Origin: a virus
UHGV virus genome: UHGV-1428848
Reading direction: 5' to 3' (one strand)
DNA length: 64,000 bases
Position 1 is the stretch's first letter. Each line of letters begins with the position of its first letter. Shown in pieces: positions 58,381-63,675 of this stretch. Made by a program: the position numbers and the translations under genes. The notes beneath the pieces were generated by a model. The model was not told where the DNA came from, did no database searches, and saw only the letters and a program-made list of their open reading frames with translations.

Positions 58381-59100
58381 TTAGGATTCTTCTAAATGTC
58401 TTTTCTGAAAAGTTGATACCATACTACGATACGGTTCATTTGGATACCCGTGTTTTATAGCTTCCTTTGTAAATTTTCTCCATCCATATTTAGTTTCTTT
58501 CCAAAGCTCGAATAATTCATCTTCATATTGCCATATAGTTAAATGAGAACGCTTTGCAGCTTTAATTCCATTAATATGCTTTTCTTTTACTACAGGATTG
58601 CTTAGTTTCTTTTTAATAATATTACTAACTTTTCTAACAAAAACTGGGTCCTTATATCGTTGCGAAGTTTTTATTGAAGTGTTTAATTTAGCTTCCGGCG
58701 TGGATGTGACCTCTTTCATCTTTTTCTTCATATGCTGTATATGATTAGGATTTTTCCATAAATTTATAGAATGCTTTTTGCATTTTATCCTAGTTTCATC
58801 TGCAACCTTTCCTCCTTCACCCCCGTATGACAGGTTAACACAGTTTTTTCCATATTTCAATTTACCTGCCATGATATATAATATTTCAGCTTGTACCATT
58901 TTATCATAATTATCAAAAACTTCTAAAACCGTTTTTGATAATATGTGGTCATTTGACACTTTTACACGTTCTATATAATTTCCACTACCAACATACGAAT
59001 CATTGATGTTATTAGTTATATGTCGACCATAATAGTATTTCTTAATACCTGTCTTTAAATTTAATATTTCAGTTTTATAGATAGTAAAATATTTTTTCAT
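58381..59100 (-). CDS. GIY-YIG family homing endonuclease-like protein (239 aa)
   Basis: N-terminal YFTIYKTEILNLKTGIKKYYYGRH...YVGSG; Lys-rich C-terminal half typical of HEG DNA-binding domains; ATG overlaps AAA+ gene stop. Confidence 0.55.
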   Translation of the reverse strand: MKKYFTIYKTEILNLKTGIKKYYYGRHITNNINDSYVGSGNYIERVKVSNDHILSKTVLEVFDNYDKMVQAEILYIMAGKLKYGKNCVNLSYGGEGGKVADETRIKCKKHSINLWKNPNHIQHMKKKMKEVTSTPEAKLNTSIKTSQRYKDPVFVRKVSNIIKKKLSNPVVKEKHINGIKAAKRSHLTIWQYEDELFELWKETKYGWRKFTKEAIKHGYPNEPYRSMVSTFQKRHLEES

Positions 59101-60158: not shown

Positions 60159-60178
60159 AGGGAGCCCGAAGGCTCCCT
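60159..60178 (-). terminator. intrinsic terminator after nucleotidyltransferase gene
   Basis: GGGAGCC-TTCG-GGCTCCC then TTTTTTATTTC on minus strand. Confidence 0.5.
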
Positions 60179-60179
60179 A

Positions 60180-61193
60180 TCATTTATAATAACTTCGGTG
60201 GTTTTCAAGATAGACCTTCTCAAGGAAGTCATCCCAGAAACTCATGTCTACTTTTTGCTGCATACCGTTCTTAGAAGCTTCAGTAGATGCTGCTTCTACT
60301 TGATCGACCACATCTTCCAAAAACTCTTGAACTGTTTTAAATGGATGCTTACCCAACTTCACGTCGAGAATAAATGGAGCATCTTGGAGTGGATAAATCA
60401 AGTCGCCAGTTTTGTAAATTTCCAATAGTTGGAGTCCACCACGACAAGCATGGCTCAGAGCTTTCCAGTCAATACCTTCATTAGCTTCGGCTTTACGAGC
60501 ACGTTCACCATATTCAGCATCTAATTTGTTCAGTGACTGCTTAAGCTCAATAAGAGAAAGCGTTGTCTGATATTTACGACCCAATACAGTGTAGAACGTT
60601 TGTGGACCTGTTTTCTCATGATTATGGAACACCCATTCACAGAATTCGTTTTCTGGAAGACGATGCTTAATATCTTCAACTTTAGTGCGACGCTGCTTAA
60701 TAGAACCATCTTCTTGGTAATCAACCCATTGCTCAGGGATTTGATTAACTACTTTCAATACATCGCGTAATGCAGCCAAACGAGAACCCTTGACACCATA
60801 TTTAGAAGCTTGCTTGCGAACATATCCTAAATAGGATTTCATGTTAGTCGTATAAAAACGAGAACGGTTGTCTTGAATAAACTTCCACACGTCAGGCAAA
60901 TCAGATTTAACCACTAGTTCAGGTGGAGTGTGAAGCATATCCAATGCTACAGTTTCACCATCTGCTGCTAATTTAAAGAAATACTTAAGACTATACAATT
61001 CGTGGTCAATATCATCTTTAGTGTTTTTAGATGATGTGTTGTTGGTATTTTTACTCATATGCTCTTTAACATTTCCGATAAGAATATCACGAGCAGGAGG
61101 AACAAAGATTTCTTTAAAATCTACATCAGATTCTGGAGTAGAAGTTCCATAAAGATGGCTACCAAAATAGCTTTTCATTACTGTTTTCATCAT
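60180..61193 (-). CDS. Pol-beta superfamily nucleotidyltransferase (337 aa) with helical C-terminal domain
   Basis: N-terminal GSHLYGTSTPESDVDF (GS-x9-DhD minimal NTase motif) plus downstream DDIDHE acidic site. Confidence 0.55.
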   Translation of the reverse strand: MMKTVMKSYFGSHLYGTSTPESDVDFKEIFVPPARDILIGNVKEHMSKNTNNTSSKNTKDDIDHELYSLKYFFKLAADGETVALDMLHTPPELVVKSDLPDVWKFIQDNRSRFYTTNMKSYLGYVRKQASKYGVKGSRLAALRDVLKVVNQIPEQWVDYQEDGSIKQRRTKVEDIKHRLPENEFCEWVFHNHEKTGPQTFYTVLGRKYQTTLSLIELKQSLNKLDAEYGERARKAEANEGIDWKALSHACRGGLQLLEIYKTGDLIYPLQDAPFILDVKLGKHPFKTVQEFLEDVVDQVEAASTEASKNGMQQKVDMSFWDDFLEKVYLENHRSYYK

Positions 61194-61651
61194 TCAGCCT
61201 TATATTCAATAACAGGACATACTTTAGCTTTACGCGCTTTTAAAAATTCAACGATAACCGATTTCTTGGGTTGAATAGGAGGTAAACCTTTATACGCCCT
61301 ATCAATATTTTCTACGTGTAAAGCATAATCCTTTTTCCATTTATAATCTTTATATTTTTCATGCAAATGTGCAGGAATAACAAATGAACCGATAATAAGT
61401 AAAACAACCAAAAGCGCAAGTATAAATGCTGATGGAAGAAGAGTCCATAAACTACCGAAAATAAGCCAACGTTGTAGGCTTTCTGCACAAATAATTGTTA
61501 GCCCTACGAGTATAGCACATCCAAAAATAGAAACGAAAAATGTAGGAATGGCAATAGACCAAAAATATGCGCATAGTGTCTTAGGTCGTTGCCATTCATC
61601 GTTAAACAATTTGAATAATTTATAGTGCCAAGAGTTTTCATTAATAATCAT
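61190..61651 (-). CDS. membrane protein (153 aa), 3-4 TM helices
   Basis: Stop overlaps nucleotidyltransferase ATG (ATGA). Confidence 0.5.
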   Translation of the reverse strand: MIINENSWHYKLFKLFNDEWQRPKTLCAYFWSIAIPTFFVSIFGCAILVGLTIICAESLQRWLIFGSLWTLLPSAFILALLVVLLIIGSFVIPAHLHEKYKDYKWKKDYALHVENIDRAYKGLPPIQPKKSVIVEFLKARKAKVCPVIEYKAE

Positions 61652-61653
61652 AA

Positions 61654-62175
61654 TTATCCTTTCATTGAAGGCGTAACAGTTGTTAAATACTTAATCATAG
61701 CTTCAGCTTCTGATTTTGATAATGAAATTTCTCCATTGTTTTGACGAATAGAAATAAAATCCGGATGACGGTCACCACCAGCTTTTAAAACACACATATA
61801 AGTATCAACTTCATCTTCAATATTTGAAATGATTGAAGCAGTTCCACATGAATGCGGTTTTTGATAAATCAATGCAGCTTTTCTTCCGCCATTTGACTGT
61901 TCATAAACTTTTAATACATCAAACAAATCACTTCTTTTATCAATAGCTAAAATGTTATTTTCATCTTCAATGTTAAATCCTTCGGATACTTCATAAAGTG
62001 TCACCCATAAATCGCCAATATCAATAACAGCGTTCACTTTTCCATGACTTTCAAGAGCATGACAAATTTTCTTGATTTCGTCATAACTCATTTTAATAAT
62101 ATCATCTCCTTGAATAAGGAAAATATCATTTTTAAATTCAACACGAATTAAACCACTTCCACTTGAAATAAACAT
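61654..62175 (-). CDS. hypothetical protein (173 aa), paralog of 62182..62736
   Basis: C-terminus SEAEAMIKYLTTVTPSM. Confidence 0.5.
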   Translation of the reverse strand: MFISSGSGLIRVEFKNDIFLIQGDDIIKMSYDEIKKICHALESHGKVNAVIDIGDLWVTLYEVSEGFNIEDENNILAIDKRSDLFDVLKVYEQSNGGRKAALIYQKPHSCGTASIISNIEDEVDTYMCVLKAGGDRHPDFISIRQNNGEISLSKSEAEAMIKYLTTVTPSMKG

Positions 62176-62181
62176 ATTTCC

Positions 62182-62736
62182 TCACTTTGAAATCATAGTT
62201 GGAATGACAGAATCAAGATAAGTCTTTAGCGCAATAGCTTCGTCTTTGGTAAATGTGACAATATGTGCTCGAGAATCATCATTTTGGCGAACAAGTACGA
62301 CATCGCCATCTTCATAAGAAGTCTTGACATCCAAAGTCGTAGTATAATTTGCAGCTACTGGATTAATAATGTTAGCACCGCGATCTTTAGCCCATTGAAG
62401 TTTAGCCTTTTCGGGTGTTTCGACTGTTTCAGATTCTAAGAATTCTTTCACCTTGGCAACGAATGTTGCCCAATTGTTGATAGAAAGACACATAAATTCA
62501 GTTTCAATATTACCGCCGTAAAGGCCACGATAAAAACGAACTTGGAGGTCGTCTGTAATATTAGTTACACCGGTAACTCCTGAGGGAGCATAAGATAAAA
62601 TCGCAGCCAGTTCCATAGGAAGAATAGTAATACTATCGTCTTCCTGCGTCAGAACGTATACATTACCGCGTTTTTCGATAACTAGGTCACCGAACAAATC
62701 AGTTGTTTCAATTACAGCTTTCATATTATTTACCAA
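62182..62736 (-). CDS. hypothetical protein (184 aa), paralog of 61654..62175
   Basis: C-terminus DEAIALKTYLDSVIPTM. Confidence 0.5.
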   Translation of the reverse strand: MVNNMKAVIETTDLFGDLVIEKRGNVYVLTQEDDSITILPMELAAILSYAPSGVTGVTNITDDLQVRFYRGLYGGNIETEFMCLSINNWATFVAKVKEFLESETVETPEKAKLQWAKDRGANIINPVAANYTTTLDVKTSYEDGDVVLVRQNDDSRAHIVTFTKDEAIALKTYLDSVIPTMISK

Positions 62737-62911
62737 TTAAAGTTTCAATATAAGAATCAAGATTTACTTTAGCTTCTTCCATAAGAGTTTTGTATTTAAT
62801 CTTGTTGGCATGTCCGGAGAAAGCTGATTCATCAATAATTGTTGATGTATGAACAGCTTTACTATACGTCTCAATTAATTCTCTTAATTTAAAAGCCTGC
62901 TCACTTGTCAT
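62726..62911 (-). CDS. small helical protein (61 aa), tandem family member
   Basis: MTSEQAFKLRELIETYSKAV... Confidence 0.45.
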   Translation of the reverse strand: MTSEQAFKLRELIETYSKAVHTSTIIDESAFSGHANKIKYKTLMEEAKVNLDSYIETLIGK

Positions 62912-63040
62912 TACATACTCCTCTGAATCATATCAATAATATTGTTCACCAGATTATAAGTAAACATTGGGTAATTATATTGAATCATCACATACACAAC
63001 AAACAAAACTTTCATTCTCTTCTCCTTGGAAGTTGACAAG

Positions 63041-63072
63041 ATTACTATACCATAACCTTGCCAACTTGTAAA
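63041..63072 (-). promoter_or_regulatory. T4-type early promoter
   Basis: Minus strand GTTTACAAGTTGGCAAGGTTATGGTATAGTAA. Confidence 0.5.
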
Positions 63073-63249
63073 CCATTAAATGACGTTTTCAATAAAATTT
63101 TGAAGCTTTGTGTGAGCATCAACCATGATTTTCATTTCTTCTTTGGCGAAAGCTGTACCTCTTTCCCGAGAAGAACATTCATAGTCAGAAACTGCATTAG
63201 CATATTCTTCAATTAGTTTCATTAAAAACATCTGCTTTTCAGTTTTCAT
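63073..63249 (-). CDS. small helical protein (58 aa), tandem family member
   Basis: Hand-translated MKTEKQMFLMKLIEEYANAV...; not in ORF track (<60 aa). Confidence 0.35.
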
Positions 63250-63433
63250 TATTCCACCTAATCATTTCAAGATATTGAACTAACTTAACTTTAGATTTAT
63301 CCAAATCCTTTTTAGCTGCTTCTATACCGTCGTATGAATATCCTTCACAATGCTCAACTGCTAATTGATATGAATCTATTTCAATATCACGTGCTAATTT
63401 AATGATTTTTTCAAACTGTTCGCGTGTTAGCAT
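63239..63433 (-). CDS. small helical protein (64 aa), tandem family member
   Basis: MLTREQFEKIIKLARDIEID... Confidence 0.45.
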   Translation of the reverse strand: MLTREQFEKIIKLARDIEIDSYQLAVEHCEGYSYDGIEAAKKDLDKSKVKLVQYLEMIRWNNEN

Positions 63434-63435
63434 AC

Positions 63436-63675
63436 TTAAACTCTCGTATTATGATCGATAATTTCATCAAGAAACATATCTAACGCTTCTAAAGCATTAT
63501 CAACTTTAGCTTCAAGTTCATCAATACCTTTATTTGCAATGCCTGACGAAAACCAAGCAAAGTCACTAAGTTCCTCATCTGCTTTGCAAATTAAAGCTAC
63601 CAATTCTTTAATTTTATCTGCTTGTTCAATTCTAGTCATTATTCCACCACATATGAAAGAGAGAATATTGCACAC
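63436..63675 (-). CDS. small helical protein (79 aa; 67 aa from MTRIEQ...), tandem family member
   Basis: [21 protein letters not shown]... Confidence 0.45.

Follow-up and report, generated by a model that had tools for sequence, protein, structure and literature searches.

Are two small neighbouring genes near the end of a stretch of T4-like phage DNA copies of one another, and what might such a pair do next to genes for a membrane protein and a nucleotidyltransferase? The question is raised by positions 61,654–62,736 of a 64,000-nt stretch of UHGV virus genome UHGV-1428848 (the window hereafter). An earlier note, made from the sequence alone, had read the two open reading frames (ORFs) of 173 and 184 aa as adjacent paralogs sharing a C-terminal motif, which arose by local duplication and are possibly linked in function to the unit downstream. 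Both ORFs are present on the minus strand at these positions, and both C-terminal strings quoted in the note are found in the translations. The window belongs to a T4-like phage (Tequatrovirus). Its last 4 kb is 97.9% identical to Enterobacteria phage RB18 and matches more than 700 T4-like phage records. In RB18 the pair is labelled MobD.1 and RB32ORF097c (097c below), followed by RB32ORF096c (096c) and NrdC.11. Both genes belong to the T4 MobD.1 family, known as "y05I" in Pfam, and are tandem paralogs that diverged long ago. Every gene at the locus is on the minus strand, as are all features of the window given below.

Paralogy of MobD.1 and RB32ORF097c

097c (61654–62175) encodes 173 aa and is a diverged MobD.1 paralog with both domains of the family. 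MobD.1 (62182–62724) encodes 180 aa from an ATG, judging from the ORF list, the RB18 annotation (543 nt), the Pfam domains PF24449 and PF24448, and the sequence of the start region. The longer ORF of 184 aa is real, but its start had to be corrected, because TTG at 62736 overlaps the upstream gene. The ATG at 62724 lies one base past the stop of the upstream gene and is the annotated start in RB18.

In a single BLASTP comparison, the two proteins are 28% identical with 46% positives (residues 8–171 and 16–181, E = 1e-7), and the similarity covers the whole length of the pair, beyond the short C-terminal motif. The same two Pfam domains are found in both. T4_y05I_N (PF24449, curated cut-off 24.9 bits) matches 097c with 118.5 bits (E = 2.2e-34) and MobD.1 with 112.7 bits (E = 1.4e-32). 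T4_y05I_C (PF24448, curated cut-off 27 bits) matches them with 81.2 bits (E = 7.3e-23) and 63.5 bits (E = 2.4e-17), respectively. Both proteins also align end-to-end with phrog_1502 (E = 3e-67 and 2e-67), over positions 1–178 of the 178-position profile for 097c and 2–178 for MobD.1. T4 MobD.1 is the best match to the T4_y05I models (E = 3.5e-43 and 1.6e-20), and therefore "y05I" is MobD.1. The BLASTP alignment, the shared domains and the shared PHROG bear out the paralogy proposed in the earlier note.

An identity of just 28% could be taken for a chance match, or for a short motif shared by unrelated genes. This explanation is refuted and has practically no probability left, given the full-length alignment, the same domains and PHROG at E < 1e-17, and structure prediction, which gave both proteins the same secondary structure and the same top structural match. 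A natural chimera, P0029, also splices the N-terminal part of MobD.1 to the C-terminal part of 097c in register. P0029 is present on six contigs; its N-terminal part is of the T4 type, and its structure corresponds to a deletion between the tandem paralogs. Another fusion, P0053, begins with the N-terminal ~50 residues of MobD.1 and continues with the C-terminal part of NrdC.11.

Other resources gave little on the family. Sequence searches of solved structures, with single sequences or the family profile, found no PDB match at E up to 10. There was no significant match in NCBIfam, and the five scanned proteins of the unit had no match to PADLOC defence models at E up to 0.1. A literature search with mobD.1, y05I, T4p097, NP_049711, RB32ORF097c and the Pfam accessions returned only a table entry giving the insertion site of mobD. 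The family is already in Pfam and PHROGs, and a paper on it was not found.

Predicted Three-Repeat Architecture

AlphaFold2 (AF2) models of both proteins were built from an 18-sequence alignment. The mean predicted local distance difference test (pLDDT) scores are 81 for MobD.1 and 79 for 097c, with 85–94 in the N-terminal domains and 53–85 in the C-terminal domains. Each model contains three ββββα units, and the third unit has five strands before the helix. Pur-alpha is the best structural match to both models, which have the PUR ββββα topology with repeats I and II in one domain. The next matches are MRP1/2, PBF-2 p24 and StWhy2, and the similarity thus extends to several members of the PC4-like/Whirly class. 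The 097c model also matches Pur-alpha repeat III (5fgo, 8chw), Borrelia Pur-alpha, MoSub1 and PC4. In a viral structure library, the matches were members of the same family only. Both proteins are thereby predicted to consist of three ββββα repeats of the PUR/PC4-like (Whirly-class) fold, with repeats I and II packed together and repeat III single.

In MobD.1, repeats I and II constitute the N-terminal domain (T4_y05I_N, 62425–62715), a predicted intramolecular PUR-like domain that is acidic and variable among alleles. Repeat III is the C-terminal domain (T4_y05I_C, Pfam residues 112–181, 62194–62403), which contains the motif TKDEAIALKTYLDSVIPTM and is proposed to be a dimerisation half-domain. 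In the AF2 model it is composed of strands and a helix at residues 164–181, with a lower pLDDT of 62–85. In 097c, repeats I and II (61891–62172, PF24449 residues 2–95) have a pLDDT of 86–94 and a net charge of −9.3, and repeat III (61663–61872, PF24448 residues 102–171, helix 154–167) contains the motif SKSEAEAMIKYLTTVTPSM. The C-terminal motif of the earlier note maps to repeat III, the part with the highest conservation, where it makes up the helix and tail.

Relationships among the repeats are in part visible in the sequence. The profile of repeat III matches that of repeat I (Prob 93%, E = 3.3e-7), and DUF7189, a single-repeat family, is linked by its profile both to repeat I (Prob 88%, E = 2.9e-6) and, less strongly, to repeat III (Prob 71%). 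The signature I-x-Q-x-D-D-x-I-x-L-x(3)-E-A-x(2)-L-x(2)-Y-L is common to DUF7189 and repeats I and III, and repeat I of 097c has a weak match to DUF7189 (E = 4e-4). Similarity of repeat II to repeats I or III was not found, and therefore the sequence supports kinship for repeat I, repeat III and DUF7189 only. Membership in the PUR family is not seen at the sequence level, with no PUR-family match in Pfam at E up to 1.

The ββββα repeat has been described for the PC4-like class, where an isolated repeat is unlikely to fold alone (PMC7549692). As of 2020, Pur-alpha was the sole known protein having both an intramolecular (repeats I–II) and an intermolecular (repeat III) PC4-like domain (PMC7549692). 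The phage models resemble Pur-alpha (PURA; 3k44, 5fgo, 8chw) in having three ββββα repeats, of which I and II form one domain and the third stands alone. They differ from it in that the identity is 5–12% with no sequence-profile match, the phage proteins are acidic, and phage repeat III has five predicted strands. The Whirly/PC4-like binders (PBF-2 p24, StWhy2, MRP1/MRP2, PC4, MoSub1, YdbC, Borrelia Pur-alpha and the phage T5 PC4-like protein) have a net charge opposite to that of the phage pair and no detectable sequence relationship with it. The matches also include proteins of similar fold with protein partners, namely the SsgB-type cell-division protein 3cm1, the KhtT N-domain 7agw, and the type VII secretion chaperones 9dct and 9dcr, all with scores below those of Pur-alpha. 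Going by the PDB titles, these presumably act on proteins or membrane proteins.

Age of the Duplication and the Derived Locus of T4

The duplication proposed in the earlier note is the right origin for the pair, but a recent event is rejected by the 28% identity and by the neighbour-joining tree, where the 097c clade is placed outside all MobD.1 orthologues, those of other genera included. The duplication is old, or 097c evolved faster. The family is narrow, with 54 clusters in a 5.8-billion-protein index and 31 representatives in an exhaustive search. All sources that were named or looked up are T4-like phages, with one exception: P0061, a repeat protein of 1572 aa, was set aside as it looks like a compositional or repeat artefact.

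Among cultured phages, a MobD.1-type gene is present in ~720 records, and ~434 of them have both copies. 097c is >90% identical in 434 records. 096c is >80% identical in ~427 records, and more distant forms are seen in Klebsiella, Erwinia and Aeromonas phages. Among Tequatrovirus records, the counts of 097c and 096c are therefore nearly equal (434 vs. ~427). True mobD is found in only ~47 records.

T4 MobD.1 and the window pair are alike in that the two window proteins are full-length members with both domains and are located at the same position, between mobD.2 and nrdC.11. The window allele of MobD.1 is, however, 48% identical to that of T4 overall and ~39% identical in the N-domain, and the window has in addition 097c and 096c, both lost from T4 to mobD. 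DNA homology between the window and T4 reaches the start of nrdC.11 (61194), resumes at 62157–62316 (160 nt), and is next seen only at mobD.2. These 160 nt take in the 3′-terminal 135 nt of mobD.1 and the 5′-terminal 19 nt of 097c. In T4, the relic ATGTTTATTTCAAGTGGAA directly follows the mobD.1 stop and is itself followed by unrelated DNA and mobD (T4 locus L002, 5209–5284; genome 57208–57283). A 23-codon ORF begins with the relic and ends in a stop that overlaps the mobD start. This order indicates that the homing endonuclease gene mobD displaced 097c, from codon 7, together with 096c. Because T4 retains the relic, the two-copy state predates the T4 arrangement. T4 is the derived state, which lost 097c and the membrane-protein gene at the insertion of mobD.

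Other phages have different arrangements. LF82-2 and Gaprivervirus VR7 have a single copy of MobD.1, with NrdC.11 after the next gene; the gene directly after MobD.1 is an annotated membrane protein in LF82-2 and a 150-aa ORF in VR7. Some phages carry fragments of the pair. In the phage T2 record NC_054931 (locus L003, 2193–3160), mobD.1 and 097c are split into three ORFs (97, 57 and 63 aa), which could reflect either gene decay in a laboratory strain or sequencing frameshifts. In T4, the segment from nrdC.11 to mobD.3 can be deleted in the laboratory (PMC9825161). The pair are non-essential accessory genes of T4-like phages.

Allelic Variation and Acidity

Conservation is uneven along MobD.1. 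N-domain alleles are 36–41% identical and the last repeat is 78–87% identical, and the N-domain alleles diverge between phages whose flanking DNA is ~95% identical. A variant of 097c, P0049, shows the same pattern, with 40% identity in the N-domain and 86% in the last repeat. Conservation extends to few basic or aromatic residues (K97, K110, R150, K164, Y69 and Y173). At the DNA level, mobD.1 of the window is a mosaic relative to T4: the first ~135 codons (62317–62724) have no detectable similarity, and the last 45 codons (62182–62316) are 88% identical. At least three groups of N-domain alleles are present in otherwise ~95%-identical phages, which could be due either to selection or to recombination only.

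Both proteins are strongly acidic, with pI values of 4.56 and 4.89 and a net charge of −9 to −10. When only bulk charge is computed, the N-domains have charges of −8.5 (MobD.1) and −9.3 (097c) and pI values of 4.25 and 4.44. The pI of the family ranges from 4.1 to 5.8, and the stand-alone repeat III proteins described below are mostly acidic. Nucleic-acid binding by the PC4-like fold uses basic and aromatic residues of the sheet. The Pfam label "putative transcription factor" implies that the curators saw a similar fold resemblance, and the acidity is a caveat to this label.

Transcription Unit and Stand-Alone Repeat III Genes

The unit of a membrane protein and a nucleotidyltransferase, which the earlier note had placed downstream of the pair, is real. 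096c (61190–61651) is a basic membrane protein of 153 aa (pI 9.3; phrog_944, membrane protein) with two long hydrophobic segments. It starts 2 nt past the stop of 097c, and its stop overlaps the start of nrdC.11. NrdC.11 (60180–61193) is a Pol-beta nucleotidyltransferase of the RlaP family (PF10127, 44.7 bits against a cut-off of 23) with a G-S-x11-D-x-D motif; GSHLYGTSTPESDVD at residues 11–25 is an intact match to the Pol-beta pattern G[SG]-x(9-13)-D-x-[DE]. An intrinsic-terminator-like hairpin (60159–60178), with an 8-bp stem including six GC pairs and followed by TTTTTTATTT, closes the unit after nrdC.11.

On the upstream side, MobD.1 is directly preceded by a gene for a 61-aa DUF7438 protein (62726–62911; PF24219, E = 1.4e-15). 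This gene is not at this position in T4, and DNA homology to T4 is missing over 62317–62899. MobD.2 (34 aa, 62911–63015, annotated in RB18) is the first gene past a promoter-like site, and its stop overlaps the next start (TAATG). The promoter candidate at 63044–63072 (TTTACA, 17 nt, TG-TATAGT) is of the sigma-70 type and resembles T4 early promoters; it is the best match in the region, having 10 of 12 consensus positions and an extended −10, and is a match to the consensus only. The T4 late-promoter box (TATAAATA) was not found near the genes, nor was a convincing MotA-type middle-promoter pattern directly upstream of the pair. The order from the promoter-like site is thus MobD.2, the 61-aa DUF7438 gene, MobD.1, 097c, 096c, NrdC.11 and the terminator, with 1-nt overlaps or gaps of 1–6 nt at the junctions. 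These tight junctions, together with one promoter-like site and one terminator, suggest an operon-like unit in which the pair is probably transcribed with the membrane-protein gene and nrdC.11.

Repeat III is also found by itself, as genes of 67–87 aa. Where the flanking sequence is long enough, the stand-alone gene, or in L012–L015 a tandem pair of such genes, is always directly upstream of an ORF of 159–163 aa. Two such ORFs were compared and are homologues of 096c (29% identity, E = 2e-19 and 7e-20). In Klebsiella phage JD18 and in the metagenomic or uncultured T4-like contigs L011–L015, L020 and L021, this arrangement is seen with an RlaP gene 0–3 genes further on. A y05I_C gene directly upstream of a membrane-protein homologue and 0–3 genes from RlaP is seen in Jiaodavirus, Gaprivervirus and several metagenomic T4-like phages. 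In L012–L015, two repeat III-type genes are in tandem, a second instance of paired copies.

Two candidates near such loci were rejected. One is an ORF of 180 aa that metagenomic phages carry between the genes for the membrane protein and RlaP; it does not belong to the family (hhalign probability 1%). The other, in Aeromonas phage AS-sw, is a gene for 74 aa located upstream of that for the membrane protein, and it has neither a y05I_C match nor the motif. In the distant T4-like phages (L011–L015, L018–L022 and L016), a "Phage_tudor" gene (PF24144) usually precedes the stand-alone repeat III gene, and DUF7189 and a DksA-like zinc-finger gene often precede it as well. L012 has two copies of a small cassette of Y05J, Phage_tudor and y05I_C. 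The 096c family is far more widespread than the MobD.1 family, being found in 914 phage records, those of Klebsiella and Aeromonas phages included. Its cytosolic ends are conserved, with NSWHYK...PKTLCxYFW at the N-terminus and EFLKARKxKxCPxIEY at the C-terminus.

The functional link to the downstream unit suggested in the earlier note is circumstantial. The close packing and the conserved neighbourhood support it, but an obligatory link is contradicted by T4, which lacks 097c and the membrane protein.

Possible Functions of the Pair

RlaP enzymes add 1–2 nucleotides to damaged RNA 3′ ends, and T4 NrdC.11 is listed as a member (PMC12776372). They have been proposed to rescue tRNAs robbed of a nucleotide by ribotoxins such as RloC (PMC12776372; PMC7824862). 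This RNA 3′-end activity and the family membership of NrdC.11 make an RNA-handling accessory role attractive for the pair. The explanation ranked first is a dimeric adaptor of Pur-alpha-like fold that would be coupled to the downstream 096c/NrdC.11 module; as a whole package, its chances seem about even. Since one repeat of this kind would hardly be stable by itself, repeat III may pair with a second repeat III, much as Pur-alpha dimerises via its own repeat III; this would give homodimers of MobD.1 and of 097c and possibly a MobD.1–097c heterodimer. The stand-alone repeat III genes are consistent with such pairing, and so is the pLDDT of repeat III, which is below that of the N-domain in the monomer models. 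The conserved repeat III module might work with 096c and, more loosely, with NrdC.11, and the variable acidic N-domain might give specificity for a ligand, either RNA or a host protein. The pair would then most likely act as accessory or adaptor subunits in a phage module for RNA-damage response or host takeover, and not as classical transcription factors.

Several points weigh against this adaptor model. The fold call is drawn from predicted models, a shallow alignment of 18 sequences and structural matches of 5–15% identity, and no sequence-level match to the PUR, Whirly or PC4 families was found. The acidity argues against the nucleic-acid binding typical of the fold. T4, LF82-2 and VR7 have a single copy, and therefore a heterodimer is not obligatory. 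T4 retains MobD.1 and NrdC.11 in the absence of 097c and the membrane protein, and therefore the coupling of MobD.1 to the membrane protein is not obligatory either. Because these phages have a common ancestry and general gene order, the cases of linkage are not independent, and the conserved adjacency points only weakly to a shared function. Experimental work on any member of the family was not found in the literature.

The same observations can be read in two other ways. If the pair were true single-stranded nucleic-acid binders of the Pur-alpha/Whirly type, acting via the β-sheet faces of the N-domain, they could regulate transcription or translation, in the sense of the Pfam label, or serve as RNA chaperones presenting damaged tRNA ends to NrdC.11. 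In favour of this, the top structural matches are without exception nucleic-acid binders from the same class of fold, the three-repeat layout is that of Pur-alpha, and an RNA 3′-end nucleotidyltransferase is in the same transcription unit. Binding of this kind is nevertheless unlikely for proteins with a net charge of −9 to −10, an N-domain pI of 4.3–4.4 and a family pI of 4.1–5.8, in which conserved basic or aromatic residues are few, the putative binding domain is the most variable part, and sequence matches to PUR, Whirly or PC4 families are lacking. Some proteins of this fold do not bind nucleic acids: SsgB (3cm1), a top-five match for both proteins, is not known to do so.

The pair could instead be acidic host-takeover or counter-defence factors, possibly nucleic-acid mimics, that use a PUR-like scaffold to bind a host protein. 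The N-domain would then recognise the target and vary under arms-race selection, with each paralog directed at a different target. The strong acidity favours this explanation, and so do the divergence of MobD.1 alleles (36–41% identity) amid flanking DNA of ~95% identity and that of the 097c variant P0049. The pair is also part of an early-type unit of small accessory genes, is dispensable in the laboratory and is fragmented in some phages. We regard this explanation as possible but rather unlikely. Recombination alone could yield the allelic mosaic, and 097c is highly conserved (>90% in 434 records), which is unlike an arms race. The pair has no known host partner and no PADLOC match, although PADLOC holds defence and not anti-defence proteins.

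A more specific form of the adaptor model can also be speculated. Repeat III homo- and heterodimers might serve as an acidic decoy or a tRNA-fragment adaptor with 096c and NrdC.11, in a hitherto unrecognised phage module against host anticodon nucleases of the RloC type that excise a nucleotide. We consider this very unlikely in such detail. If true, the repeat III dimers would be a phage version of the Pur-alpha architecture, and the second type of protein with both intramolecular and intermolecular PC4-like domains.

Other Genes of the Locus

The 61-aa DUF7438 gene is one of four small tandem paralogs (57–67 aa), all DUF7438, located at 62726–62911, 63076–63249, 63239–63433 and 63436–63639. 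They correspond to MobD.2a, MobD.3, MobD.4 and the 61-aa gene, which is called "helicase loader" in some records. This label traces to PHROG 4859 and appears unsupported.

Between nrdC.9 and nrdC.10, a 239-aa ORF (58381–59100) without a Pfam match is similar to PHROG 314, "homing endonuclease" (E = 1.8e-30). RB18 and T4 have only ~100 nt at this place. The ORF thus appears to be a free-standing endonuclease that was inserted in this phage lineage only.

Implications for T4-Like Phages

The locus is an ordinary dispensable accessory region, and the result is a modest refinement. What is added is the explicit paralogy of the pair, its age, and the 097c relic in T4; the modelled three-repeat architecture similar to Pur-alpha, with sequence evidence tying repeats I and III to DUF7189; the stand-alone repeat III genes, consistently paired with one membrane protein in the vicinity of RlaP; and the caveat of acidity.

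The study of phage RNA repair was founded on T4 as its model, yet nrdC.11 and the genes surrounding it still lack assigned roles. The Pur-alpha-like model, together with the pairing of repeat III and the membrane protein beside RlaP, leads to testable hypotheses for a widespread family, and the model would add a viral and acidic example to the PC4-like fold class. If the pair are merely dispensable accessory genes, the analysis would still provide a clean annotation of a duplicated family and of the remodelling of the T4 locus by mobD.

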